IMG/VR virus record: IMGVR_UViG_2563366844_000003 | Direction: 5' to 3' (one strand) | Origin: a virus | Taxonomy: Duplodnaviria; Heunggongvirae; Uroviricota; Caudoviricetes | Length of the DNA: 19,234 bases | Part shown: one piece after another, positions 1,261-18,723 of the stretch | Layout: every line of letters starts with the position of its first letter | Position numbering within the stretch: the stretch's first letter is position 1 | Notes under the pieces: generated by a model | Databases searched by the model: none | The model's input: only the letters and a program-made list of their open reading frames with translations | Told to the model about the DNA's origin: nothing | Program-made: the position numbers and the translations under genes

Positions 1261-1355
1261 CTGAATAGATTGAGCCTAGCTCGACGGGGCGAAAAGCGGG
1301 AAGCCTTACCGCCTGGCTCAATCACAAAATAAGGCGCAGCGTAAAAGGTGACGCA

Positions 1356-2960: not shown

Positions 2961-3794
2961 ATGAACATCGAAAAAAGCAGATTAATTTCTGAGGCCGCCC
3001 CTCATCTGAACGCCTCTCTGGGCACAATTAACGGTAATGAATTTGCCGCAATTGTCCCGGTTATTCCTGGTCATATCGGTGGGCGTGAAACCAATATTGT
3101 TAGCGCAAAAGCGTTACACAAAGCGTTGGGCGTGGGAAAAGACTTCTCTACATGGATCACTGATCGCATCTCTGAATATGACTTCACCATTGGGCACGAT
3201 TACTCAGTCCATAAAACAATTTCCCCAAATTTGGGGAAAAGCCCGAATGGCGCGGCTTACAGCAAGATTAAGCAGTCTGGCAGACCCGGCAAAGACTATC
3301 TGTTAAGTGTCGGAATGGCGAAAGAACTGGCAATGATCGAACGCAATGATCAGGGTCGCGCTATCCGTCGTTATTTCATCCAGTGCGAGGAAGAATTACA
3401 GCGTAGCGTGCCTGAAATCGCCGCCCGCTATCGTCGCCAGCTAAAAGCCCGTATCAGTGCCGCAAACAACTTTAAGCCAATGTGCGATGCGCTGAATATG
3501 GCCCGTGCCGAGATGGGTAAAACGACGCAGCAACACCACTACACAAACGAGAGCAATATGATTTCTCGTATCGTTTTTGGTGGGCTAACTGCTAAGCAGT
3601 GGGCGCGGATAAATGGCTATTCTGGCGAACCTCGCGACCATATGAACGCAGAACAGCTTGAGCACCTCTCATATCTCGAAAGCACCAATATCACGTTAAT
3701 TGATATGGGCATGGAATATGAGCAGCGCAAAGGAGAACTCACCCGCCTGTCGCAACGCTGGCTCGCCAAGCGTCTGGAGGCGGTCCATGTTTAA
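2961..3794 (+). CDS. Phage antirepressor, AntA-domain family
   Basis: 277 aa. N-terminal ALHKALGVGKDFSTWITDRISEYDF and the block MAKELAMIERNDQGRAIRRYFIQCEEEL match the conserved AntA antirepressor signature as I recall it. GGAG SD 7 nt upstream. Confidence 0.75.
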   Translation: MNIEKSRLISEAAPHLNASLGTINGNEFAAIVPVIPGHIGGRETNIVSAKALHKALGVGKDFSTWITDRISEYDFTIGHDYSVHKTISPNLGKSPNGAAYSKIKQSGRPGKDYLLSVGMAKELAMIERNDQGRAIRRYFIQCEEELQRSVPEIAARYRRQLKARISAANNFKPMCDALNMARAEMGKTTQQHHYTNESNMISRIVFGGLTAKQWARINGYSGEPRDHMNAEQLEHLSYLESTNITLIDMGMEYEQRKGELTRLSQRWLAKRLEAVHV

Positions 3795-3969
3795 GCCGAC
3801 AGGAACACCCCAACCTCAAAAACGCTACAAAGATGCCCACGGAGCACTCGTTACTGTCGAAAGCGTGTCTCACAACCGAGTGACGTTTTATCGCGACGGG
3901 TATCAATCGCCATGCGTACAACCGCTGGCACGTTTCATGAAGGAGTTTGCGGAGGTTAACAAATGCTAA
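3787..3969 (+). CDS. Small conserved prophage protein (DUF4222-like, tentative)
   Basis: 60-aa ORF starting at ATG 3787, which overlaps the antirepressor stop (ATGTTTAA). MFKPTGTP...RVTFYRDGY...PCVQPLARFMKEF resembles a small family common in enterobacterial prophages. The ORF track extends it upstream to 3700, inside the preceding gene. Confidence 0.45.
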   Translation: MFKPTGTPQPQKRYKDAHGALVTVESVSHNRVTFYRDGYQSPCVQPLARFMKEFAEVNKC

Positions 3970-5030
3970 CCGCCCAGAAGAAGATATTTTCACTGGCTGG
4001 TATGTCGCCAAAATCCAGCAATATGACAGCAAAGTCTGGCATTAATACAGCAGACACAAGCAAAGTTTATCATTTTCTGGTGGTAGGAGCGGATGCCTTA
4101 ACTATGTCAGAAATTACGGTCGATGGTGTTAGCGTTGAGAAGGTCAGCGGCTGCGCCAGAGAATTTCTGGTCGTAGATGGCTTTCTCTGCTCGCGTAGTG
4201 ACTCCACAAAAACCTTCGTCCACACGCGCGACGTTAACGAAATGAGCGCGATGTATTGTGCATCTGGTGCTTCCAATTCTGAGTTTTCGGAGTCCATAAA
4301 AAAGAGCTTGCCGTTATGCGGCAACACGGTTTATGGTTATAAGGCACCTCATAAAACGGGTGCCGGGATTGGCGTCCTGGTAAATCGAATGGCGACATAT
4401 GACGCGCCGAGCGTCTTTTTTTATGTCGTAGGTCTGACTCACCCATTTTTTGGGCGTTGGTGTATAATCCAGCGCCTTTGTCAATCAATGGTGGCTCAGG
4501 CAGGGGCTTCTTCGGAAGCGCCGGTATCCATTCGAGCCGGTTACGCCAACCCTGTCTGGGCTACCACCAGCGAAATTGGCGTTTCCGGTGGTAGCGTTAC
4601 ATGCTATCGAATGGAGGCTGCCACATGCTGGCTACTACCCCTACCCAAAAACCGCAATTTATCTGGATTATCGCCGCAGTTCGCCGCGATTGCCCGACAA
4701 TTACCGCCAAAATTCATCATATTGCTGCCGAGTCTGAACGCGATGCTCGCCGTTCTCTGGTGCGCGATCACGTCTGCTTTTTTGCTGGTCGTATCCGCAT
4801 GGAGGTGGCACATGATTAAAACCTACGATGTGCATATGGATCCCCTCGAACGCACAAGCCAGATCATCACACTGACAGAAGTGATTAACGACATTCTGGT
4901 GAGCAACTCTCCCTCACGAGACGAAAGACTGAAGGCGTTACTCGCGATATTGGATCTCGCCGTTCGTGACGTTCATTTCCTGCTGGAAGGTGGCGAAATG
5001 CCAGGAAAAACGGGGGCAACCAATGAATAA
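3963..5030 (+). CDS. Uncertain long ORF (355 aa); possibly composite, with a regulatory region and nested small ORFs
   Basis: Strong GGAGG SD 7 nt before ATG 3963 and no in-frame stop to 5030. The 4400-4810 portion contains a terminator-like hairpin plus T-run, a TATAAT box, three open frames and a low-complexity Cys/Trp-rich translation. Confidence 0.3.
4401..4422 (+). terminator. Putative intrinsic terminator (GACGC-gccga-GCGTC followed by T7)
   Basis: 5-bp GC stem, 5-nt loop, seven consecutive T. Lies inside the 3963 ORF, so it is functional only if that ORF is not translated through. Confidence 0.3.
4430..4470 (+). promoter_or_regulatory. Putative promoter with consensus -10 TATAAT (4463-4468) for the operon leading to the primase
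   Basis: Perfect TATAAT hexamer preceded by TG-rich sequence. The -35 is only a weak match (CTGACT region). Sits immediately after the terminator-like hairpin. Confidence 0.3.
4625..4819 (+). CDS. Small ORF (64 aa), first candidate gene of the primase operon
   Basis: GGAGG SD (4613-4617) 7 nt before ATG 4625. The SD-to-ATG 17-mer ATGGAGGCTGCCACATG is nearly duplicated at 4797-4814. Overlaps another frame, so low confidence. Confidence 0.25.
   Translation: MLATTPTQKPQFIWIIAAVRRDCPTITAKIHHIAAESERDARRSLVRDHVCFFAGRIRMEVAHD
4812..5030 (+). CDS. Small ORF (72 aa), C-terminal part of the 3963 frame with its own strong start
   Basis: GGAGG (4801-4805) 6 nt before ATG 4812. Stop overlaps the next start (ATGAATAA). 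Translation is protein-like. Confidence 0.4.
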   Translation: MIKTYDVHMDPLERTSQIITLTEVINDILVSNSPSRDERLKALLAILDLAVRDVHFLLEGGEMPGKTGATNE

Positions 5031-6642: not shown

Positions 6643-7006
6643 AAATGCAGAAATGGCGCTTAGCTCCGCAATCGGAGAGCAGGTGGCAAAGATTGCTGGT
6701 GCTGTGTGGATTCATAACCTTCATTCTACTGGTGAAGAGAAAATGGCAATTCAGACGCCAGAGGGACGCACCATTACTACATCTCTGAAGCCGTCAGATG
6801 TTTGTGATCTGATTTGCGCATTCATGTACCCAGCAATGAGGACTGTCCACGGCGATCAGTGGAAACTTGCGACAACCGCTGAATTTGATATGTGGCTAAA
6901 CAATGATGGCATGCTGACTGATTACGGAATAACCAAGTGGCAGATGCTGGTTAGCCATATCGCAAACGCTATAGACCACGTGGGGTACGGTGATGCGAAA
7001 CATTGA
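6635..7006 (+). CDS. Hypothetical protein (123 aa)
   Basis: GGAGG SD before ATG 6635; 3' end overlaps the primase start. Confidence 0.6.
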   Translation: MRENAEMALSSAIGEQVAKIAGAVWIHNLHSTGEEKMAIQTPEGRTITTSLKPSDVCDLICAFMYPAMRTVHGDQWKLATTAEFDMWLNNDGMLTDYGITKWQMLVSHIANAIDHVGYGDAKH

Positions 7007-9749
7007 TCTTATCCGTCAGGTTATCAGTGCGTCTGAAAACAACTGGCCTCATGTGCTGGGCTGCCTGAACATAAATGTCCCTGACTCTCCGCGCCGTCAT
7101 GCTCCCTGCCCTGCATGTGGGGGCAAAGATCGATTCCGGTTCGATGACAACGGGCGCGGTAGCTTCATCTGTAATCAGTGCGGCGCTGGTGATGGGCTGG
7201 ATTTAATTAAACGCGTAAATAACTGCGACACAACAGAGGCGGCGCTTCTTGCCGCTGATGTTCTGGGTATTGATTACCGGACAACGGAAACACCAGAAGC
7301 CACCAGCCAGAAACGGGAACAACTGGAAACCAAGCGCCAGCGACGCGAACAGGAGCGCCTGAAAAGGGCAGAGAAGGACGAACAACAAAGACGGGATACG
7401 TTTTCCCGTCAGTTTGATGACATGCGCAGAAAGGCTGTAAACGGCAAATCTGATTATCTGGTTGCGAAAGGGGTAGGTGATTTTACATTCCCCGTGTTGC
7501 CCGATGGATCTCTGTTGCTGGCGCTGGTGGATAAATCCGGCGCAGTCACAGCAGCACAGACTATTACCTCACATGGTGAAAAAAGACTCCTGACAGGTTC
7601 AGCAAAGCGGGGGGCATATCACGCCATAAACGCACCAGAAACAACACAGAGCATCTTAATCGCAGAAGGGCTGGCAACGGCATTATCTGCCCATTTAATT
7701 CGCCCAGAGGCGCTTACAGTGGCGGCGATTGATGCCGGGAACCTGTTATATGTCGCCCAGGTACTGCGGGATAAATTTCCTTCAGCACAAATCATCATTG
7801 CTGCGGATAACGACCACAGCGAAGGAAGACAAAACACGGGGAGAAGAGCAGCAGAAAAAGCAGCTTTATCTGTTTCTGGATGGGTGGCATTACCCCCGAC
7901 AGATCACAAAGCAGACTGGAATGATTACCACCAAAAACACGGCATTAAATGCGCCACAGAAGCGTTCAATAAGTCAATGTACCAACCACAGGGTAATGGC
8001 GTGAAACAGGAGCCACAGACCATTGAGGGAAGCGATTTTAAGGTTATGGATACCGACCCACTGAAACCAAGAATAGAAAGCCGCGAGGATGGTATTTATT
8101 GGGTATCTCCGAGAGCTGACAGCCAGAGTGGAGAAATCATCAATAACGAAAGCTGGTTATGTTCTCCGTTAAGCGTTATCGGTACTGGCAGAGACGATAA
8201 AGACCAGTATCTCATTCTTCGCTGGCTGTCGTTTGGTTCTGAAACGCCGACAACCGCTGCCATTCCACTGGCTGATATTGGTGAACGTGAAGGATGGCGC
8301 ACACTTAAAGCTGGTGGGGTAACTGTCACGACCAAAAGCAGCCTCAGAGCAATACTGGCAGACTGGCTACAACGCAGTGGCTCTCGTGAATTGTGGCGTG
8401 TTGCTCATGCCACTGGCTGGCAATGCGGAGCGTACATCATGCCTGATGGGGAAATCATCGGAACACCTGAAAATCCTGTGCTGTTCAGCGGGAGAAGCTC
8501 AGCCGCAGCCGGATATACCGTCTCAGGGAGCGCGAAAAGCTGGCGTGATAACGTGGCGCGTCTGGCCTTTGGTAACTATTCAATGATGACCGGGATCGGC
8601 GCAGCACTGGCAGCGCCATTGATTGGGCTGGTGGGCGCTGACGGGTTCGGCATTCATTTCTATGAGCAGTCGAGCGCAGGTAAGACCACCACGGCAAACG
8701 TGGCGAGCAGCTTATACGGCAACCCTGATTTACTGCGGCTGACGTGGTACGGAACCGCGCTGGGGCTGGCAAATGAAGCTGCCGCCCACAATGACGGACT
8801 AATGCCGCTTGATGAAGTTGGTCAGGGCGCTGATCCTGTCAGTGTTTCACAGTCTGCCTATGCGTTATTTAACGGTGTAGGGAAACTGCAAGGCGCTAAA
8901 GATGGTGGAAACCGGGATCTAAAACGCTGGCGTACAGTGGCAATCAGCACCGGAGAAATGGATTTAGAAACATTTATCGCTACTTCCGGGCGAAAAACCA
9001 AAGCCGGGCAACTGGTGCGACTGCTGAATATTCCGTTGAGTAAAGCAGTACGCTTTCACGATTACCAGAACGGAAAACAGCACGCAGACGCACTGAAAGA
9101 CGCTTACCAGCATCACCACGGCGCAGCCGGGCGTGAGTGGATTAAATGGCTGGCAGACCACCAGCAACAGGCAATTAAAACTGTTCGTGACCGCGAAAGC
9201 AGATGGAGAAGTCTGATCCCATCCGATTATGGTGAGCAGGTTCACCGTGTAGCCGCGCGATTTGCCATTCTGGAGGCCGCATTGCTGTTAGGCGAGGTTG
9301 TAACAGGCTGGGATGCTCAGACATGCCGTGATGCGATACAGCACAGCTATAACGCATGGTTGCGCGAGTTCGGCACAGGTAACAAAGAACATCAGCAGAT
9401 TATTGAACAAACGGAGGCATTTCTTAATGCCTATGGGCTTAGCCGTTTTGCACCATTTCCATACAGCCCGGCAGATTTGCCCATCAAAGATTTAGCCGGA
9501 TACCGTCAGCGTGGAGAACATGACGAAAGCCCAATGATTTTCTACACATTCCCGGCCACATTTGAAAAGGAGATCGCATGTGGTTTCAACGCAAAACAGT
9601 TTGCTGAAGTGTTGAAAAAAGCCGGGATGCTAACCCCACCAAACAGCGGTCGTGGATACCAAAGAAAATCACCACGTATTCAGGGACGACAAATAAACGT
9701 TTATGTACTCAATTACCAGCCAGGAGATTACAACTCATCTGAAGAATGA
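6993..9749 (+). CDS. Replicative primase/helicase, P4-alpha-like (zinc-binding N-terminus, TOPRIM, P-loop NTPase)
   Basis: Zn-ribbon CPACGG...FICNQCG near the N-terminus. TOPRIM-like ILIAEGLATA and IIIAADNDHSEG (acidic E and DxD). P-loop-like SSAGKTTT. Start is probably ATG 6993; the track begins at the in-frame GTG 6990. Confidence 0.9.
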   Translation: MRNIDLIRQVISASENNWPHVLGCLNINVPDSPRRHAPCPACGGKDRFRFDDNGRGSFICNQCGAGDGLDLIKRVNNCDTTEAALLAADVLGIDYRTTETPEATSQKREQLETKRQRREQERLKRAEKDEQQRRDTFSRQFDDMRRKAVNGKSDYLVAKGVGDFTFPVLPDGSLLLALVDKSGAVTAAQTITSHGEKRLLTGSAKRGAYHAINAPETTQSILIAEGLATALSAHLIRPEALTVAAIDAGNLLYVAQVLRDKFPSAQIIIAADNDHSEGRQNTGRRAAEKAALSVSGWVALPPTDHKADWNDYHQKHGIKCATEAFNKSMYQPQGNGVKQEPQTIEGSDFKVMDTDPLKPRIESREDGIYWVSPRADSQSGEIINNESWLCSPLSVIGTGRDDKDQYLILRWLSFGSETPTTAAIPLADIGEREGWRTLKAGGVTVTTKSSLRAILADWLQRSGSRELWRVAHATGWQCGAYIMPDGEIIGTPENPVLFSGRSSAAAGYTVSGSAKSWRDNVARLAFGNYSMMTGIGAALAAPLIGLVGADGFGIHFYEQSSAGKTTTANVASSLYGNPDLLRLTWYGTALGLANEAAAHNDGLMPLDEVGQGADPVSVSQSAYALFNGVGKLQGAKDGGNRDLKRWRTVAISTGEMDLETFIATSGRKTKAGQLVRLLNIPLSKAVRFHDYQNGKQHADALKDAYQHHHGAAGREWIKWLADHQQQAIKTVRDRESRWRSLIPSDYGEQVHRVAARFAILEAALLLGEVVTGWDAQTCRDAIQHSYNAWLREFGTGNKEHQQIIEQTEAFLNAYGLSRFAPFPYSPADLPIKDLAGYRQRGEHDESPMIFYTFPATFEKEIACGFNAKQFAEVLKKAGMLTPPNSGRGYQRKSPRIQGRQINVYVLNYQPGDYNSSEE

Positions 9750-10512: not shown

Positions 10513-10974
10513 ATGGAACTAAAATTTATTGATAACCCTGTGCGATTACAGGCCTTTCTTAACGAGCCTGGCAATACCGAAAATATTGTTGAGCCGGGGC
10601 ACACGTACTACATCAAGCCTGATGCGGTATATCTCGGTATCTACGAAGGATTGGTGCTGGCTGGCGTTCATGAAGTGCGTAACTTCTGGCATAACATTGT
10701 TGAATGCCATGCGGTGTACGACCCCGGATTCCGTGGTGAATATGCACTGCAAGGGCATCGATTATTCTGCAAATGGCTTCTCAAAAACTCACCATTCCTT
10801 AACAGCATTACCATGGTTCCTGACACCACCAAATACGGACGGGCAATTATCCGTTTGCTTGGCGCTACCCGTGTTGGTCACCTTGATGATGCTTATATCA
10901 GATGTGGTAAACCCGTCGGCGTAACGCTTTATCAGTTAACTCGGCAACAATATAAGGAATTCAGCGAATGTTAA
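10513..10974 (+). CDS. Putative virion-associated protein, first gene of the ejection-protein-like operon (position analogous to P22 gp14)
   Basis: 153-aa intact ORF whose stop overlaps the next start. Assignment rests on operon position and size, not a recognised motif. Confidence 0.65.
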   Translation: MELKFIDNPVRLQAFLNEPGNTENIVEPGHTYYIKPDAVYLGIYEGLVLAGVHEVRNFWHNIVECHAVYDPGFRGEYALQGHRLFCKWLLKNSPFLNSITMVPDTTKYGRAIIRLLGATRVGHLDDAYIRCGKPVGVTLYQLTRQQYKEFSEC

Positions 10975-11645
10975 TTACCCATATAGCTCATAAATATCTC
11001 AATCGTGCCGTATACGAAAAAGGCGGTGATGGTGGTGCCTCTAAAGCTCAGGCGAAGGCCCAGCAGCAGGCAATTGATTTGCAGCGCGAGCAGTGGAATA
11101 CGGTGATGAATAATCTCAAGCCGTATGCAGAAGTCGGATTGCCTGCTTTACAACAACTACAAGGACTGATGACTCTGGAAGGGCAGAATAAAGCCGCGAA
11201 TGATTTCTTTGGTTCTGGTTTATATAAAACACAGGCAGATCAGGCCCGTTATCAGAACCTTGTCTCAGCAGAAGCTACCGGGGGGCTTGGCTCAACAGCT
11301 ACCAGTAACCAGTTATCTTCCATTGCGCCCATGCTTTATAACAATTGGCTCAGTGGGCAAATGCAAAATTATGGAAACCTGCTAAATGTCGGGATGAATG
11401 CGGCATCAGGGCAGGCAACAGCAGGGCAAAACTACGCCAATAATACCGGACAACTCTTGCAGGGGCTTGGCGCTATTCGTGCAGGTCAGGCGCAGCAGCC
11501 ATCCAGTCTTGCGCGTGGTATTGGTGGGGCGGCATCAGGCGCTTTAGCGGGTGCGCAACTTGGTTCCGTTGTTCCGGGTATAGGTAATGTCGCCGGGGCT
11601 ATTGGTGGTGGGCTTATTGGTCTTGTTGGGGGGCTTGGATTCTAA
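10968..11645 (+). CDS. Putative ejection/DNA-transfer protein (P22 gp7-like architecture; Gly-rich hydrophobic C-terminus)
   Basis: 225 aa. Gln/Ala-rich N-terminal half and a glycine-zipper-like tail GIGGAASGALAGAQLGSVVPGIGNVAGAIGGGLIGLVGGLGF. Stop overlaps the next start (TAATG). Confidence 0.7.
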   Translation: MLITHIAHKYLNRAVYEKGGDGGASKAQAKAQQQAIDLQREQWNTVMNNLKPYAEVGLPALQQLQGLMTLEGQNKAANDFFGSGLYKTQADQARYQNLVSAEATGGLGSTATSNQLSSIAPMLYNNWLSGQMQNYGNLLNVGMNAASGQATAGQNYANNTGQLLQGLGAIRAGQAQQPSSLARGIGGAASGALAGAQLGSVVPGIGNVAGAIGGGLIGLVGGLGF

Positions 11646-12964
11646 TGGCGACATGGCAACTTGGCGGGCTGCCTAGCATGGCACCGCAAAATGATAATGC
11701 TCCTCGTTCTTCCGTTCCTCAGCCTGTGCAGTATCAGCAGCAGCCAAACGTAGGTTTAATGGCGCTACAGGGGCTAAGAGGCGTTGCTGAGATTAATCAG
11801 CAGGCGCAAATTTCCCAGCAGCTAAAAGAATATCAGGCACGGTTGGGTAGTGCGGTAGCTAATAATGATCGTGTTGGAGTGCAGAAGTTAATGGCCCAGT
11901 ATCCCCAGTTTATGGCTGATTCTCAAAAACAGATGGGATTCATTGATGCTGAGCAAAATCGACAGACCGCTGACGCTGCCATGAATCTGCGTCTTGCGTC
12001 ACAAACTGGAGATCCACTGACCATGCAGAAGGCCATTCAGCAGGCAAATCCAGTATTACAGCGATTTGGTCTTCCTGCTGAAGAGGTTTATCAGTCTTGG
12101 CAGAATGACCCACAGGAATTCAACAGAATCACTGACCTCATCCACCTCCATGCTGATCCAAATAGTTACTTTAGTGTTCAAGAGAAGCAGCAAGGGCAGA
12201 GCATTGCACAGCAGAACGCAGATACATCTGCATATAATGCTCAGGTTAATGCGGAACAGGGTAATCGGCGTCTCGATATGGAGCAGTTCAAAGTCCTATC
12301 CGATAACCAACTACGCACGAGAGAAATGGTTCTGAAAGCACGACTTGGACGTGCTCAAAATGACATCGAGAGAGACAAGCTCAATGCTGAACTGAGCAAA
12401 GTACAGCAGGCGAAAGTGGAGAAGATGAACGATAAAATTAATACTGTTGCAGGTAACATCGACTCCTTGAACTCTGCGCTTGAAGTGGGTCATGAACTGG
12501 CGGGAATTGTAGGGAAACATCCTTCGGCCGTTACCCGCTCGCAGAACTATAACCCCCTGACGCTGGGGTTTGGATTCCTTCCTGATGTAGCAGAAGACAC
12601 ACGAAGCCTACGCGCCAAAGCTGATGAATACAACCTAAAGGTTATTCTGCCTAGCCTCAAAGGGACTTTTGGCTCTAACCCAACCGAAGGGGAAAGGGCT
12701 GCCCTTATGCAATCTCAAAATGGCATTAAGTCAGCAACCAGCAATGAGGCATTTTTGCGAGAGTTGAATAAAGCGCAGGACGTAATTATTCGAATGCAGA
12801 AACGACAGATTGCCGGGCTCGGTATTCCTGTAACCAAATCAAAGGACGAAGAAACTGATACCAAAATGCTGTTGCAGGATCCTTCACTGATTAAGGATTA
12901 TGTGACCGCACATGGCTATCTGCCGGAAAGTTACTATCAGGCAAAACTTAAGGGATGGCAATGA
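11645..12964 (+). CDS. Putative ejection protein (P22 gp20-like; Gln-rich coiled-coil)
   Basis: 439 aa, Gln-rich and predicted alpha-helical. Coupled start/stop with both neighbours. Confidence 0.7.
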   Translation: MATWQLGGLPSMAPQNDNAPRSSVPQPVQYQQQPNVGLMALQGLRGVAEINQQAQISQQLKEYQARLGSAVANNDRVGVQKLMAQYPQFMADSQKQMGFIDAEQNRQTADAAMNLRLASQTGDPLTMQKAIQQANPVLQRFGLPAEEVYQSWQNDPQEFNRITDLIHLHADPNSYFSVQEKQQGQSIAQQNADTSAYNAQVNAEQGNRRLDMEQFKVLSDNQLRTREMVLKARLGRAQNDIERDKLNAELSKVQQAKVEKMNDKINTVAGNIDSLNSALEVGHELAGIVGKHPSAVTRSQNYNPLTLGFGFLPDVAEDTRSLRAKADEYNLKVILPSLKGTFGSNPTEGERAALMQSQNGIKSATSNEAFLRELNKAQDVIIRMQKRQIAGLGIPVTKSKDEETDTKMLLQDPSLIKDYVTAHGYLPESYYQAKLKGWQ

Positions 12965-15681
12965 TGGCACAACTGACAGAAAAACAGAAAGCCTATTCCC
13001 GTCATCTCGATGAAAAATATGGTTTCCCATCAGGGACGATGGAAACATTAGTTGGCAATGAATCTAGTGGTAACGGAAGTGCCGAGTCACCGAAAGGAGC
13101 TAGAGGATTTGCTCAACTGATGCCCTCAGTAATGAGTGATGCTGGTTATCGTGGAACTGATCCGCGCTCACTGCCATTTGAAAAGCAAATGGATATCGCA
13201 GCAAACCATCTCAATAAAGGAATGAAGCGATTTGGTGATATTGGTATGGCATTGGCTGGGTATAATTCTGGCTATGCTCGTATTAATGCCGTCAGAAACG
13301 GTAAATCTACACTGCCAGATGAAACGGCTAATTACGTAAGTAAATTTGCAGATGCCGGAATAATCCCTGATGACAGTGAAATCTTGCAGTTTGCACAAAC
13401 CAGTCAACATCGCAATCTTCAGCAGCCTGACTACTCAGAGCTTGATAAAGAAATCTCTCAGGTGGGAGATATTTCTGCATGGGAAGCAAAACGTCAGCAA
13501 TTTAAGAACATAGAAGCAGGACTACCAACAGCCAGTTCATGGGAGCAGAAAAGAGCTCAGTTTCTCGCCGATGAAAATGCCGGGGAACCGCAGCAGCAAG
13601 TAGCCAAGTCTAACCTTAATCCTGAGATGGAATATCTTTCGCCAGGACTGAAAGCTGCGCCAGAGCAGATGGCCAGAGGGATTGCTAATATACCGTTTGA
13701 TGTAATGGACGCAGGCGTGGGGGTAGTCAATGCGGCGCAATCAGCCGGAGCATGGGCAGCTCAGAAGCTTGGTGTGGGTGATGGCACATACACGCCCATA
13801 TCACCTGTCTTTCGCCCAGTAGACCAACCTACAGATCCATACGCGCAGGCTGGTGAGCAGCTAGCACCTTACCTTATTACAGGATTAGGTGCAGGAAAGG
13901 CAGCTACCGCAGCTTCTTCCGTTGCCAACGCTCCACGTGCTGAACGTGCGGCCACAAAGGTGGCTAGTATGTTGGCAGAAAACCTGCCAGGTACATTGGT
14001 GAACGCCCAAAAGAACGGGCAGATCAGCCCAGAAGACCTAGCAAAAGAGACAGGTATTGGCCTAGCAGGATCGCTAGGAGCACGCGCTTTAATAAAGAGC
14101 GGACAGACAGCCAGTGACGTAATGCGAGATGTATTGCGGAGTAATACAAATCAATCAGGCCATGTGTTAGGGGCAGCAAATACTCTGGAAACCGCCAATG
14201 ATGTATCGAAAGCAGCGCGTTCTGCCGTAGGCCGAGAGCATATCGCATCGCAGGCATCAAACGTCAGAGATGATGTCGCTAAGGCGGCGAAAATCACTGG
14301 TATTAATATCAACACCCTGACGCCCGGAATGCGCTCAGGTAGTCGTGGAATTGCCCAAGCAGAAGGTGTTCTGGCATCAACTCCTGGGAATGTTCAGGAT
14401 GCTCACCTTACGGCCTTCAATGAAATATCCTCAAAGTTGAATAAGCAGTTGTCTGATTTCGGTGCTGAGTCTGGAAGCGCATCAGAAAAAAGCGCAGCAA
14501 TTAAAGAGCGCATCATCGCGAGCCTCAGTGATATGAAAACAGCAGAGAATATGGCATGGGCAGAACTGCGAAGCACGATGCCACGCGAAAGGATGAAAAT
14601 GAGTAATGGGATGGCTGTCGTCCAAGCAGAAAAAGCAGCCAATGTTCCACTCAGCCCGGAGATGAAACAGTTTCAGGCTGCCAACAACCAAGGTGGCGGC
14701 ATAACCTTCGACGGGATGAAGGCATGGCGTGCTAAGTTTGCTGATGCTGAACAAGCAAACACCCGGGCAGGTAAGGCCAATGCCGCCCGGATTGCCGGAG
14801 AAATGCGCAGAGCTATCACTGATGACATGCGCATCATGGCTGAAAAAGGAAACTTCCTCACAGAATGGCAGAAAGCTAACGATCTCTCTAAAAGTTACAT
14901 TATCGCCAAACAAAATGCCGAATCTGTTTTTGGTCGAGATCTCGCATCAGACGCTATGGTAAGAAAAGGTGCCGATACGCTTAAGGCATCCGCAAACACT
15001 GGAACGGGAGCTTTTCACCGCCTTATCTCCGCGCTGCCGGAAGCAGAACGCCAACCAGCAATAGCATCTATTCTTCAGCATGCTGTGGCGCAGGGAGAGA
15101 AGGGAGGAATCGGTGAAGAGTCTGGTATCCAGTATTTTGCCAAGCTCATGACCCAGCAGAATGTAAACGCCATCAGTCGTCATGCGCCAGATCTCGGTAG
15201 AATGATGAAAGAGTTCGGTGTACTCGCTAAAGCCAGCACCAGACCGCAGCGATACGTAGAGCGCACGGGAAGAACAACTGAGGCTCTCAAAACGCTCGAT
15301 TCAGGCCTTCCAAAGATCGTCGGTGTGATCATGAACGGAGTTCAACAGTCAGGTGCGATCGCTGGAGGCTTTGGCGGTGGTGTAATTGGTTCGATTAGTG
15401 GTTTGGTTGCTGGTGGCGCACTGAGAAATACTGTGGCTAAGATTGGGGCGACAAGAAGTGGTCGATATGCGATAGAGAAAGCCGTTCAGGAAGCTACAAA
15501 AGCAGTGCGCGCAGGGGCATCACCAGCAGCGATCGCCGCAGCAGAGAAACGATTTTCGACCAATAAAATTGCCATGAAAGCAATTCGTGATGCCGTTGGG
15601 GCTGAAGAATTCGTGAAACTGACAAGGGCCGGGATTGTAGCTACCCTCAGTGGCATGAAAGATGTTAGCGAATGGGAATAG
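12955..15681 (+). CDS. Large internal virion/ejection-type protein with N-terminal lytic transglycosylase (SLT) domain
   Basis: 908 aa. SLT motifs GNESSGNGSAESPKGARGFAQLMP (putative catalytic Glu at nt 13060-13062) and ALAGYNSGYARINAV. True start is probably ATG 12961 or 12964, which have better SD spacing from AAGGGA. Confidence 0.85.
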   Translation: MAMMAQLTEKQKAYSRHLDEKYGFPSGTMETLVGNESSGNGSAESPKGARGFAQLMPSVMSDAGYRGTDPRSLPFEKQMDIAANHLNKGMKRFGDIGMALAGYNSGYARINAVRNGKSTLPDETANYVSKFADAGIIPDDSEILQFAQTSQHRNLQQPDYSELDKEISQVGDISAWEAKRQQFKNIEAGLPTASSWEQKRAQFLADENAGEPQQQVAKSNLNPEMEYLSPGLKAAPEQMARGIANIPFDVMDAGVGVVNAAQSAGAWAAQKLGVGDGTYTPISPVFRPVDQPTDPYAQAGEQLAPYLITGLGAGKAATAASSVANAPRAERAATKVASMLAENLPGTLVNAQKNGQISPEDLAKETGIGLAGSLGARALIKSGQTASDVMRDVLRSNTNQSGHVLGAANTLETANDVSKAARSAVGREHIASQASNVRDDVAKAAKITGININTLTPGMRSGSRGIAQAEGVLASTPGNVQDAHLTAFNEISSKLNKQLSDFGAESGSASEKSAAIKERIIASLSDMKTAENMAWAELRSTMPRERMKMSNGMAVVQAEKAANVPLSPEMKQFQAANNQGGGITFDGMKAWRAKFADAEQANTRAGKANAARIAGEMRRAITDDMRIMAEKGNFLTEWQKANDLSKSYIIAKQNAESVFGRDLASDAMVRKGADTLKASANTGTGAFHRLISALPEAERQPAIASILQHAVAQGEKGGIGEESGIQYFAKLMTQQNVNAISRHAPDLGRMMKEFGVLAKASTRPQRYVERTGRTTEALKTLDSGLPKIVGVIMNGVQQSGAIAGGFGGGVIGSISGLVAGGALRNTVAKIGATRSGRYAIEKAVQEATKAVRAGASPAAIAAAEKRFSTNKIAMKAIRDAVGAEEFVKLTRAGIVATLSGMKDVSEWE

Positions 15682-16553: not shown

Positions 16554-16743
16554 ATTCATGCCCCTATTATTCATGAATCGCTTTTTCTGGAAGGTATGCG
16601 ACAAACGTTAAGTGACATTGCCTACACATTCGGGGCGGGATTTCAAATCCGCTCCCAGTTGATGGGGCCGTTACAGTACGCGCATATCCGCTTTATGTGA
16701 AACAGGAAGATTTTTCTGATATCACTGCCACAGCAAAACACCA

Positions 16744-17055: not shown

Positions 17056-17600
17056 CATCGAAATAATCGGATGGCGTATGCTGCTGGTAATATGAAGACC
17101 GATAGCATTAACCGAAAGGAGAAAGACTTCTCGATAACGGCAAGATCGCGGCAAGGGGGCTGAATTGCGAGGCGAGATTAAGCAACTGTCTTGAACGTAA
17201 AAATCATGGAGCAACATGATGGTACGATTCATTCCATTCTTCGTTCTTTCTGAGCATTGCGTTCAGGCTTAGTCAAAATTAGTGTTGCGAGCGGACCTAT
17301 TAGTAATTGTTAGTGCGATGCGCCTGTTATGGATTGTTATGGTTGTGGCAGGCCTGATTAATATCCAGTATGACCACCAGCTATGAGAAGCCACCTCAGT
17401 GGTTCGCAGTTGCAGGTTTGCACTCAGGTTCGCAGGGTTTTGGCTACTTTCACGTGCGAACCTGCAGAATTGCAAAGGACAACTAAGTCCTCTGGCCAAC
17501 TCCCGGTTTATGAGCGACACAGTCCGCCTGGCGCATCGTTTTCGTCGAGTGCGCCCATCAGCTTGTCCATGGACTATCCACCACTCGATATTAAAGCTAA

Positions 17601-18435: not shown

Positions 18436-18723
18436 ATGATGAGGGACAGGAAAGCTGAAGAGCTGGAGTCAAAAGGGCTATGCCGGAGAGCTGCCGCACG
18501 ATGGGCAGAAGTCATGACGCTGGCAGATGGCGATAAAGAACGTGAACATGCAGCAAACAGACGCTCTGAATGTATCCGTAGGGCGGCACGCCCACCAGCA
18601 ACTACAGACAGATTCGGAGATTTAAGACAGGCAGTTAAGCGAACTCATTCGGCTCTTGGTATGGATGAGGAAGCGAGAGGGTACTTCAGGCGTTATCGCG
18701 ATAAAGATTGCCAGAGACAGTAA
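18436..18723 (+). CDS. PerC-family transcriptional regulator (tentative)
   Basis: 95 aa. N-terminus KAEELESKGLCRRAAARWAEVM resembles the PerC motif (AEKLEAKGLWRRAA.RW.EV) as I recall it. GAGAGG SD. Confidence 0.6.
   Translation: MMRDRKAEELESKGLCRRAAARWAEVMTLADGDKEREHAANRRSECIRRAARPPATTDRFGDLRQAVKRTHSALGMDEEARGYFRRYRDKDCQRQ

Follow-up and report, generated by a model that had tools for sequence, protein, structure and literature searches.

The segment from 4308 to 4820 of the window (the whole stretch of 19,234 nucleotides analysed here) is in all likelihood the immunity cassette of a P4-like or PICI-like satellite island, laid out on the P4 plan PLE-seqA-CI-seqC-kil and nested in a spanning open reading frame (ORF) of the eta/Ash type. 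It is a known kind of element, the RNA-based immunity switch of P4-like satellites, which is textbook P4/P1 biology and leaves the classification unchanged. A covariance-model search found two curated Rfam families within the cassette, isrK and the C4 antisense RNA, both above their gathering scores (Table 1), and P4 carries the identical pair with order and strand relative to the primase gene unchanged. The RNA families, the pair shared with P4 and the co-varying complementarity described below thus identify a P4-type immunity region upstream of the primase gene. This bears out the proposal of the first-pass annotation, and the small CI RNA, the repeated target sequences and the termination point that go with such a region were all located through Rfam matches and complementarity. 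The region combines an RNA element with an ORF that can be translated.

Table 1 Features of the immunity cassette and of the ORFs around it, in window positions.
Feature	Position	Strand	Details
Spanning ORF of eta/Ash type, 355 aa	3963..5030	+	Own GGAGG at 3951-3955; start overlaps the DUF4222 stop (ATGCTAA); stop overlaps the next start (ATGAATAA)
PLE-like sigma-70 promoter (predicted)	4308..4337	+	-35 TTGCCG 4308-4313, 18-nt spacer, -10 TATGGT 4332-4337
IsrK/SeqA-like leader RNA	4344..4421	+	Rfam RF01394 isrK, 67.1 bits, gathering score 50, full model; contains hairpins 1 and 2
a1, TTGGCGT	4369-4375	+	Presented in the loop of leader hairpin 2
b1, TCGAATGG	4385-4392	+	Single-stranded in the leader
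Leader intrinsic terminator	stem 4401-4405/4411-4415, U7 4416-4422	+	Part of the isrK match
Spacer hairpin	4453..4476	+	Arms GGCGTTGG / CCAGCGCC, 8-nt loop TGTATAAT containing TATAAT 4463-4468; folding, covariation
C4/CI-type antisense RNA	4484..4571	+	Rfam RF01695, 79.5 bits, gathering score 45, model positions 1-87 of 87; 17-bp closing stem, hairpin 1, hairpin 2
b', TCCATTCGA	4527-4535		Loop of C4 hairpin 2
a', ACGCCAA	4543-4549		Single-stranded in C4
Alternative helix	4560..4595	+	3' strand of the C4 closing stem, GCTACCACC 4560-4568, pairs with GGTGGTAGC 4587-4595; a2 in the loop
Downstream target region	4576..4617	+	Takes in the 5' part of cassette 1 (4611-4627)
a2, TTGGCGT	4576-4582	+	Complementary to C4 a'
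b2, TCGAATGGA	4607-4615	+	Complementary to C4 b'; overlaps GGAGG 4613-4617 of the Kil/Icd-like gene (ATG 4625)
Kil/Icd-like ORF, 64 aa	4625..4819	+	NCBIfam NF033153 phage_ICD_like, E = 3.7e-20, 71.7 bits versus a cut-off of 25
Cassette 2	4799..4814	+	GGAGG 4801-4805 and ATG 4812, within the last Kil/Icd-like codons (ATGATTAA overlap); read from sequence

The RNA elements and their pairing sites

The leader RNA is directly preceded by a predicted sigma-70 promoter whose conserved position points to it as the equivalent of PLE. It aligns with the P4 PLE promoter (TTGCCT...TATAGT) and is predicted to start transcription at about 4344. Its hexamers are weak, with three and four matches out of six, and fall below the threshold of a simple promoter scan; in 64 distinct related loci, whose sequences have diverged, a -35/-10 pair is nevertheless found equally far from the start of the leader. 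The helices of the leader itself are 87-100% paired across 18 sequences, with compensatory changes, and the isrK fold, taken by itself, does not exceed its shuffles in stability (z-score -0.63). In structure, IsrK is homologous to SeqA (PMC4825925), and the P4 counterpart of the leader also matches the Rfam family RF03163 (c4-a1b1). The GC hairpin with a T7 run that had been noticed earlier at 4401-4422 is present as GACGC-GCCGA-GCGTC followed by T7, and is the terminator of the isrK match. We give this terminator weight because the Rfam match includes the hairpin and not because of a terminator scan, which on its own found two candidates where 1.8 were expected and was not significant.

RNA folding and covariance analysis across homologous elements, a check suggested by the first-pass annotation, came out in favour of a structured RNA. 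The C4 fold has a free energy of -47.2 kcal/mol and a z-score of -5.8, and its three helices (nos. 5-7) are 100% paired among 18 sequences, nine pairs being changed on both sides. For the structure as a whole, 95.9% of the cells are paired and 18 pairs are changed on both sides, a value that none of 500 shuffles reaches. The alternative helix and the C4 closing stem are mutually exclusive; the former is paired in 98.8% of the cells, with three pairs changed on both sides in the 18 sequences, and P4 also covaries at this position (GCTATCGCC/GGCGATAGC). We did not rely on the hairpin between a2 and b2 (69.8% paired, weakly supported) or on an anti-Shine-Dalgarno pairing of YUCC with GGAG, for which the columns are nearly invariant and hence uninformative.

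The complementarity between the C4 RNA and its flanking sites amounts in the window to 7-nt matches for the a sites and 8-9-nt matches for the b sites, with duplex energies of -10.3 kcal/mol for a':a2 and -13.5 kcal/mol for b':b2. It is maintained well beyond this island: among 82 distinct loci, own-locus complementarity of at least 7 nt was found for a1 in 89%, a2 in 98%, b1 in 67% and b2 in 82%, compared with 4-5% in cross-locus controls. A six-way alignment contains five a/b specificities, each of them altered coherently at a1/b1, a'/b' and a2/b2. All three sites co-vary among the 82 loci.

Two near-identical combinations of a Shine-Dalgarno sequence and an ATG had been pointed out in the first-pass annotation. 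The resemblance exceeds chance: the window has two occurrences of ATGGAGG-N3-4-CACATG, and 200 dinucleotide shuffles produced none; the first copy, ATGGAGGCTGCCACATG, lies at 4611-4627 as reported, while the second, ATGGAGGTGGCACATG, is shifted two bases to the right of the 4797-4812 given for it. The repeated CI targets are not these two cassettes but a1/b1 (4369-4392) and a2/b2 (4576-4615), and cassette 1 overlaps b2. Cassette 2 was considered as a third CI target and rejected. It can form only 5+2 bp with the b' loop (-7.8 kcal/mol versus -13.5 for b2), it is unchanged in relatives with a different b' (e.g. L003 and L130), and it shows no co-variation between immunity types. Judged from its sequence, cassette 2 is the probable coupling start of a 72-aa ORF at 4812-5030. 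GGAGGTG, encoding a C-terminal Glu-Val, is also kept at the ends of the kil/icd-like genes of P4, L005 and L006.

The Kil/Icd-like ORF is homologous to the P4 kil reading frame and is predicted to be the first gene translatable from the PLE-like transcript. Its product is a putative cell-division inhibitor or killer by family, and PGAP names it 'host cell division inhibitor Icd-like protein' in the relatives L003, L004 and L006. Neither the 72-aa ORF nor residues 1-127 of the spanning ORF have a family match in PHROGs, Pfam or NCBIfam.

How the switch may operate

For RNA processing, termination, the immunity phenotype and its override by translation we draw on work on P4, P1 and Gifsy-1, with the P4 mechanism cited through PMC10111431, PMC4825925 and PMC3632133. 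Transcription from the constitutive promoter would be halted in most cases at the intrinsic terminator, giving a short IsrK/SeqA-like RNA that bears a1 and b1. The C4/CI RNA would be contained in read-through transcripts and cut out of them as a stable small RNA; extrapolating from the C4/P4 CI class, RNase P and 3' trimming would yield a species of about 77-88 nt, and premature termination would be the means by which it confers immunity. Its a' and b' segments would pair with a2 and b2 on nascent transcripts, and also with a1 and b1. Pairing at b2 would mask the ribosome site of the Kil/Icd-like gene, and the untranslated RNA would be terminated, by extrapolation in a Rho-dependent manner, ahead of the downstream replication genes, up to the primase gene at 6990-9749, so that the element would, as we propose, be quiescent and immune to superinfection by elements of the same a/b specificity. 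Cassette 1 would then unite b2 with the kil/icd ribosome site, and cassette 2 would pass ribosomes from kil/icd to the next gene.

Whether the a1/b1 interaction is repressing or activating here is uncertain, since work on Gifsy-1 gives the short IsrK RNA an activating role in trans. According to that mechanism, shown experimentally in Salmonella Gifsy-1 (PMC4825925), the short leader binds up the C4-like segment of the read-through mRNA and switches on translation of the downstream ORF, and the locus in the window would mainly be an inducer switch and not an immunity repressor. In the Gifsy-1 region isrK-orf45(STnc1160)-anrP, a leader of the IsrK family has a promoter of its own and ends in a leaky terminator; downstream of it lies a processed RNA, about 80 nt long and complementary to the leader, and the mRNA takes alternative conformations (PMC4825925). 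The window shares with this region the Rfam isrK family, the leader-C4 complementarity and conserved, mutually exclusive helices. Gifsy-1 and the phage class differ, however, in having no spanning ORF, with a stop codon 3 nt before C4, and in encoding downstream a Rha/antirepressor-type protein of about 180-230 aa instead of kil/icd and replication genes. The window falls into the P4/PICI class, where a spanning ORF and a kil/icd-like first gene are followed by replication genes, and we consider it unlikely that the Gifsy-1 logic dominates here. The activation and immunity-repressor models are not mutually exclusive.

The TATAAT reported earlier is present at 4463-4468, but its interpretation as a promoter did not hold up. 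As the main promoter it was rejected on the grounds of the promoter scan, the comparison of spacers and the covarying hairpin. The P1 immI operon has a two-promoter arrangement, and TATAAT could likewise belong to an additional constitutive promoter, from which C4 RNA is made without the leader. The hexamer matches a -10 box perfectly, stands 20 nt upstream of the C4 model start and has been kept in the L003-type cassette even though the flanking stem diverged there. We nevertheless regard such a promoter as improbable. A -35 match is missing at 16-18 nt, the site does not appear among the results of the promoter scan, and the hexamer lies in the loop of a spacer hairpin (minimum free energy -15.8 kcal/mol, z-score -3.6) that is paired in 81.9% of the cells and carries four pairs changed on both sides among 18 sequences with a 65-nt spacer. 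The hexamer is confined to the lineage of the window and the L003 type. In most of the remaining 65-nt spacers the loop is not promoter-like (TGCTTATC or TTCTGTAT, for instance), the hexamer is absent from all other spacer-length classes, and in most loci the spacer measures just 24-32 nt, too short for a promoter. The P4 CI RNA, moreover, arises by processing of the PLE transcript (PMC4825925, PMC10111431).

The reading frame across the cassette

The first-pass annotation had suggested a control point rather than coding sequence, which would make the 355-aa ORF a gene-calling artefact in a region of non-coding RNA, with a frame open by chance. The frame-0 product of 4440-4810 is indeed rich in Trp and Cys, its Pfam domain is translated RNA in which a 10-residue motif is the terminator hairpin read as protein, and PGAP is inconsistent in near-identical relatives, calling either a full gene or a pseudogene plus an Icd-like gene. 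The statement that the region is open in three frames is true for 4468-4592 and not outside that interval (frame 0 is open at 3960-5027, frame 1 at 4468-4734 and frame 2 at 4403-4591 and 4595-4816). 'Rather than coding sequence' is nevertheless too strong, as the spanning frame is conserved and frame-preserving across relatives, like P4 eta. Of 74 distinct loci, 63 have no stop codon in this frame between the leader start and the kil ATG; for the two alternative frames the counts are 10 and 0. In the 63 stop-free loci the distances from isrK to C4 fall into eight spacer-length classes, all of them multiples of three. The ORF is intact in seven E. coli relatives with three different immunity cassettes, and in one relative deletions of 1 nt and 38 nt jointly restore the frame. 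It has its own GGAGG and overlaps its neighbours with both start and stop codon; the start of the P4 frame is likewise coupled to the upstream gene, by an ATGA overlap with ORF88. P4 eta provides an experimentally studied precedent, with an internal constitutive promoter, CI and seqA inside the gene and Kil as a truncated Eta (PMC10111431, summarising Forti et al. 1999). Taken with the behaviour of the offset lineages described below, this makes a frame open by mere chance decidedly improbable.

A frame disruption behind the 'ash' pseudogene calls of PGAP in L003 and L004 was looked for and rejected. The 1068-nt frame is intact in both, and the difference in pseudogene calls therefore comes from the annotation pipeline. 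For E. coli 042 and relatives PGAP labels the ORF at 3963-5030 'ash family protein'.

That the ORF is an ordinary protein gene, an 'Ash family' or Bro-network regulator in which the hairpin, the TATAAT and the SD-ATG combinations are incidental and the RNA matches reflect conserved coding, is very improbable in spite of this label, of the match to Pfam PF10554 (Phage_ASH, E = 3e-30), of the strong GGAGG and of the frame being kept open in relatives, as the Pfam match is limited to aa 124-232, i.e. to the RNA cassette at nt 4332-4658, substitutions in the cassette track base pairing (18 compensatory pairs) and three-site antisense complementarity, which protein constraint would not bring about, an Icd-like gene occupies another frame over 4625-4819, and the N-terminal part is without clear purifying selection and partly an antisense copy of a phage terS fragment. 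In P4 eta, too, the Phage_ASH domain (aa 22-146) lies over the equivalent RNA region. In the N-terminal 115 codons, differences are distributed over the codon positions as 15/6/16, with 12 synonymous versus 22 non-synonymous codon changes. This lack of clear purifying selection means that the protein product itself may be irrelevant.

What may matter instead is the passage of ribosomes. In P4, termination is prevented when Eta is translated from transcripts of the upstream promoter (PMC10111431, summarising Forti et al. 1999). By analogy, transcripts from an upstream promoter (alpA operon, from about 2300) would be translated continuously across the cassette in the 355-aa frame, and the RNA structures would be melted, termination prevented and immunity overridden, as reported for P4 eta.

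In the window, kil is not nested in the eta frame. The kil/icd ATG is offset by 137 nt (mod 3 = 2) relative to the C4 ATG, compared with 135, 138 or 141 nt in 54 other spanning loci. In all three lineages in which the frame is offset from kil/icd, the spanning frame is still open across that gene, with probabilities, given the protein sequence, of 0.11, 0.07 and 0.02. It is conceivable, if somewhat short of probable, that in this lineage a 1-nt deletion between the Shine-Dalgarno sequence and the ATG uncoupled the eta-like frame from kil/icd, yet selection keeps the +1 frame open over the whole of kil/icd (62 doubly coded codons), fused in frame to the next gene. In that case selection would act on translation of the cassette as such, by which ribosomes override RNA-mediated termination, and not on a protein product. 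Such an override would also account for the spacer indels of 63 diverse loci, whose lengths are exclusively multiples of three.

Relation to known systems and significance

With P4 the window has in common the two Rfam elements, which precede the primase gene in an identical order, a promoter that directly adjoins the leader, a/b sites on both sides of the RNA and a b2 site that overlaps the kil ribosome site. The two differ in specificity (a = TTGGCGT and b = TCGAATGG in the window, GTGAGAA and TTCACAGG in P4) and in the spacer between leader terminator and C4, which is 65 nt long in the window and 110 nt in P4. The spanning frame of the window is out of frame with kil/icd (offset 137 versus 138) and fused in frame to the following 72-aa gene. 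It also starts far upstream, after the genes for AntA and DUF4222, so that its upstream neighbour is the DUF4222 gene and not alpA, whereas the P4 frame follows alpA directly. Finally, the window island carries P22-like ejection genes. Among the ORFs scanned against Pfam, a set from which several small ORFs were left out, there was no match to the Sid, Psu or Delta families. The island has int, AlpA and a Zn-ribbon/Toprim/DUF927 primase, and its late region is P22-like. On these scans it falls outside the P4-like satellites in the strict sense.

In the immI region of P1 and P7, C4 reportedly pairs through a' and b' with a1/b1 and a2/b2, and b2 is said to cover the icd ribosome site (ascribed to Citron and Schuster, 1990). 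The immI operon (c4, icd, ant) thus resembles the window in its C4-family RNA, in a b2 over the ribosome site of an Icd-like first gene and in loop sequences that set specificity and lead to heteroimmunity (also Rfam RF01695, RF03163). It differs in that the antirepressor-like AntA of the window (2961-3794) is encoded upstream of the cassette and not downstream of icd, with replication genes following downstream. A close resemblance also exists to the Gram-negative PICIs with C4/isrK in a 'Bro zone' (Mageeney et al. 2023, PMC10111431), which combine int, alpA, genes of the Bro network (AntA, Phage_ASH) with embedded C4 and isrK, a primase and captured phage late genes. What sets the window island apart from them are its particular late genes (P22-like gp14, gp7, gp20 and gp16) and a pac-like fragment, neither of which we found described in PMC10111431. 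The unassigned ORFs of the island have no defence-system match in PADLOC or NCBIfam.

As a side observation, a fragment of a P22 pac site is located at 4111-4217 and is more novel than the immunity cassette itself; a search of phages with the pac-like 66-mer found no better match.

For annotation, our results mean that the label 'ash family protein' (Pfam PF10554) marks a translated RNA cassette. In such islands, the 'ash' label conceals the presence of two curated RNA genes, of a promoter and a terminator within the ORF, and of an Icd-like gene read in a different frame. From the a/b loop sequences (TTGGCGT and TCGAATGG in this case) one can predict mutual immunity among satellites and prophages. 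The 82 loci contain 18 types of a' and 50 types of b' in 70 combinations, and immunity groups could therefore be read straight from sequence. The frame-preserving spacers, in turn, generalise the idea derived from P4 eta: an override by translation across a regulatory RNA region appears to be conserved and not a peculiarity of P4.

Identity, structure and pairing sites of the RNA elements

A gathering-threshold Rfam scan yielded full-length matches for isrK (RF01394; 67.1 bits, gathering score 50) and for the C4 antisense RNA (RF01695; 79.5 bits, gathering score 45) inside the 355-aa ORF. A GACGC/GCGTC hairpin with a run of seven T behind it, already noted from the sequence alone, is indeed present and is the terminator of the isrK element, which forms the leader. 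Further downstream and in another frame than the annotated ORF, an Icd-like ORF matches the NCBIfam entry 'host cell division inhibitor Icd-like protein' (3.7e-20) and can be aligned with the kil frame of P4. In P4, isrK and C4 follow each other in the same order between an alpA-like gene and the primase gene, and for the P4 isrK copy there is a second Rfam match, to the family 'a1, b1 targets of C4'. These matches, along with pairing sites that change jointly, corroborate the first-pass annotation, which had placed a P4-type immunity region here. That the parts correspond is already stated in the literature, where IsrK is a structural homolog of SeqA (PMC4825925). Judged by its sequence, the element fits the C4, IsrK and Icd-like families. 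An island adjoining yicC in E. coli 042 is 99.2% identical to the window over the tested 1.2 kb, and related DNA is present in 1332 of 5426 complete E. coli genomes.

Features of the window and their coordinates
Feature	Position	Sequence	Context
int-alpA RNA (RF02996)	1269-1335 (+)		directly after integrase stop codon
355-aa ORF	3963-5030		frame 0
terS-like segment	4111-4217 (-)		antisense to 355-aa ORF
pac-like 22-mer	4196-4217	GAAGGTTTTTGTGGAGTCACTA	
Perfect hairpin	4298-4324	TTGCCGTTATGCGGCAA	after AAAAAAGAGC
Candidate promoter, -35	4308-4313	TTGCCG	18-nt spacer to -10
Candidate promoter, -10	4332-4337	TATGGT	
Leader (isrK)	4344-4421		
a1	4369-4375		within loop of leader hairpin 2
b1	4385-4392		
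Terminator	4401-4422		end of leader
Spacer hairpin	4453-4460/4469-4476		
C4 RNA	4484-4571		
b'	4527-4535	TCCATTCGA	loop of C4 hairpin 2; complementary to b1 and b2
a'	4543-4549	ACGCCAA	single-stranded in C4; complementary to a1 and a2
Alternative helix	4560-4568/4587-4595		
a2	4576-4582		
b2	4607-4615		
Cassette 1	4611-4627	ATGGAGGCTGCCACATG	GGAGG at 4613-4617
Icd-like ORF	4625-4819		
Cassette 2	4799-4814	ATGGAGGTGGCACATG	
72-aa ORF	4812-5030		frame 0
P22-type genes	10513-15681		
PerC-family gene	18436-18723 (+)		near right island end

Folding and covariance across homologous elements had been named as a check in the first-pass annotation. For 18 aligned sequences that share the spacer class of the window, pairing amounts to 95.9% over leader hairpins, terminator, spacer hairpin and the three C4 helices taken together, with 18 pairs changed on both sides; none of 500 shuffles reached this value, and slid controls gave 32-47%. 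The closing stem of C4 can also give up its 3' strand (4560-4568) to an alternative helix with 4587-4595, which places a2 in a loop and is 98.8% paired with three compensatory pairs. Support for an extra hairpin between a2 and b2 and for anti-SD pairing was weak or uninformative.

The duplexes between C4 and its target sites have energies of -13.5 (b':b2), -11.3 (b':b1) and -10.3 kcal/mol (a':a1 and a':a2 each), and the 3' end of b2 overlaps the GGAGG of the Kil/Icd-like gene. When the window is aligned with P4 and four E. coli relatives, five specificities are seen, in each of which all three copies are altered together. From viral contigs, 120 loci with the C4 core pattern (L007-L126) were collected. 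Among 82 distinct loci, complementarity of at least 7 nt within the own locus was found for a1 in 89%, a2 in 98%, b1 in 67% and b2 in 82%, as compared with 4-5% in cross-locus controls. Across the viral-contig loci and the E. coli loci L003-L006 and L127-L130, specificity is combinatorial: the 82 loci contain 70 combinations drawn from 18 types of a' and 50 types of b'. Own-locus co-variation of this kind between C4 loops and targets is what classically marks antisense immunity specificity.

Some islands, among them the window and the E. coli relatives L003 and L130, are near-identical and differ almost only in 250 nt (about 4369-4612), where one cassette has been swapped for another; this implies that cassettes are exchanged by recombination. 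Two viral contigs (L057 and L077) carry two C4 loci each, with unlike a/b specificities and 1.3-2.6 kb apart.

Predicted promoter and SD-ATG cassettes

The TATAAT at 4463-4468, previously read as a promoter, is present but lacks a -35 box and was not reported by the promoter scan. It resides in the loop of the spacer hairpin (z-score -3.6), and the same loop reads TGCTTATC, TTCTGTAT, TGTTTACA and similar in relatives; leader-to-C4 spacers are only 24-32 nt in most loci. By contrast, 64 distinct loci have a -35/-10 pair whose distance to the leader downstream is constant; examples of its hexamers are TTGACx, TTGCxx or TTGATT, and TATAGT, TATGGT or TACACT. The candidate pair in the window can be aligned with PLE, the P4 promoter preceding seqA and the CI RNA. 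A predicted promoter is thus embedded in the ORF as proposed, but 130 nt upstream of the TATAAT. Its -35 box is overlapped by a perfect hairpin that is kept in the E. coli relative L005, represents a predicted intrinsic terminator on the minus strand (6-bp stem plus T run) and could stop antisense transcription or serve as an operator.

Both SD-ATG cassettes exist, the first exactly where it had been noted and the second two bases to the right of the 4797-4812 originally assigned. Two matches to ATGGAGG-N3-4-CACATG exist in the window, as against none in 200 shuffles; the near-repeat is not due to chance. Cassette 1 combines b2 with the ribosome site of Kil/Icd. Cassette 2 is not a CI target, since its pairing with b' is weak (-7.8 kcal/mol) and it stays unchanged in relatives with other b'. 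Cassette 2 sits within the last Kil/Icd codons (ATGATTAA overlap) and starts a 72-aa ORF in the frame of the long ORF. The gene end GGAGGTG (C-terminal Glu-Val) is kept in the kil/icd-like genes of P4 and two E. coli relatives (L005 and L006). Note that GGAGG-N4-9-ATG is found at several other gene starts of the operon, including that of the 355-aa ORF (3951-3965).

Conservation of the spanning frame

The region had been described as open in three frames, which applies to the forward frames of 4468-4592 only, and as possibly a control point rather than coding sequence. The latter view conflicts with the behavior of frame 0, which is stop-free in the window from 3960 to 5027. Between leader start and kil ATG, this frame contains no stop in 63 of 74 distinct loci, the other frames in 10 and 0. 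In these 63 loci, leader-to-C4 distances are 102, 105, 132, 135, 144 (as in the window), 150, 180 and 189 nt, all eight being multiples of three. Seven E. coli relatives with three different immunity cassettes all keep the 355-aa frame intact, and in one of the seven, deletions of 1 nt and 38 nt jointly restore it. Its start (ATGCTAA) overlaps the DUF4222 stop and its end (ATGAATAA) the next start; from alpA (2314) to primase (9749), genes including the long ORF are closely spaced or overlapping on the same strand, with overlaps of a few nucleotides at most junctions.

The Pfam domain Phage_ASH covers only residues 124-232 (nt 4332-4658), exactly from the promoter -10 across leader, C4 and a2/b2 to the first kil codons; the domain boundaries are those of the RNA cassette. 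Its conserved ten-letter peptide is the translated terminator hairpin, and the match looks like an artefact. The spanning frame nevertheless acts as though it had to remain translatable. In the window class it and kil/icd are read in different frames, at an offset of 137 nt (135, 138 or 141 nt in 54 other loci), yet it is open across the entire kil/icd gene in all three lineages with the 137-nt offset (P = 0.11, 0.07 and 0.02, synonymous resampling conditional on the protein sequence). The N-terminal 115 codons exhibit no clear purifying selection.

The whole ORF is labelled 'ash family protein' in E. coli 042. PGAP calls for the same intact 1068-nt frame are uneven (L003, L004 and L006 versus L001 and L127-L130), being a full 'ash family protein' in some genomes and, in the remaining ones, an 'ash' pseudogene accompanied by an Icd-like gene of its own. 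The call for L005 is a 178-aa 'Icd-like' fusion through the RNA cassette.

P22-like features and relation to P4 and PICIs

Within the N-terminal third of the long ORF, 107 bp on the minus strand correspond to nt 268-374 of gene 3 (terS) of P22 with 88-89% identity. This similarity sets in precisely at the 22-bp pac site of P22, located by string search and confirmed in PMC5261728; the window matches P22 (GAAGATTTATCTGAAGTCGTTA) at 16/22 positions here and at 79/85 in the next 85 bp. No better match to the pac-like part was found among the phages of the collection. A 17-mer of this site fits the functional pseudo-pac pattern (PMC11226127) at 16 of 17 positions, and one mismatch each is found at 16707-16723 (+; AAGATTTTTCTGATATC), 9685-9701 (-) and 17270-17286 (-). 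Since four matches with at most one mismatch, including the site at 4216, compare with 1.1 expected, the pattern alone is weak evidence in the window. The block 4020-4295 is missing from L005.

Four consecutive genes downstream of primase match P22-type head-completion/ejection proteins: DUF2824, P22_gp7, gp20 injectosome translocase and a 908-aa SLT-domain protein that is gp16-like from its position. The DUF2824 protein we take, from gene order, to be P22 gp14-like. The 042 annotation suggests that these genes lie in the same yicC-dinD island. The segment at 4111-4217 may be a captured site for packaging by a helper phage of the P22 type, and the arrangement points to a satellite of such phages that took up its helper's packaging site and would provide P22-like virions with ejection proteins of its own. 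The island also contains the int-alpA RNA (60.6 bits, gathering score 35.8) and a gene for a PerC-family transcriptional activator (Pfam E = 8.5e-31); in strain 042, the island has a Doc-family toxin gene nearby as well.

P4 has a spanning ORF of 199 aa with an ATGA overlap with the stop of the alpA-like ORF88 and the same Pfam domain above the same RNA region. This ORF is eta. Within it lie CI, seqA and the constitutive promoter; a truncated form of Eta constitutes Kil, full-length Eta is translated solely from an upstream late promoter, and its translation prevents termination (PMC10111431, summarising Forti et al. 1999). By analogy, the window element would work like the P4 immunity region, with RNA processing, termination, immunity and translational override as expected from work on P4, P1 and Gifsy-1. 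One defining trait of P4, a kil gene in the frame of the spanning ORF, is absent from the window class. Sid, Psu and Delta families had no Pfam match among the scanned ORFs, a set that leaves out several small ones. Strictly speaking, the island is no P4; it fits the layout of Gram-negative PICIs, whose Bro zones are known to contain C4 and isrK matches (PMC10111431). The kind of element is already known and is found by standard RNA-family annotation. What is added here is modest: an eta variant that is out of frame, and the rule that distances are multiples of three.
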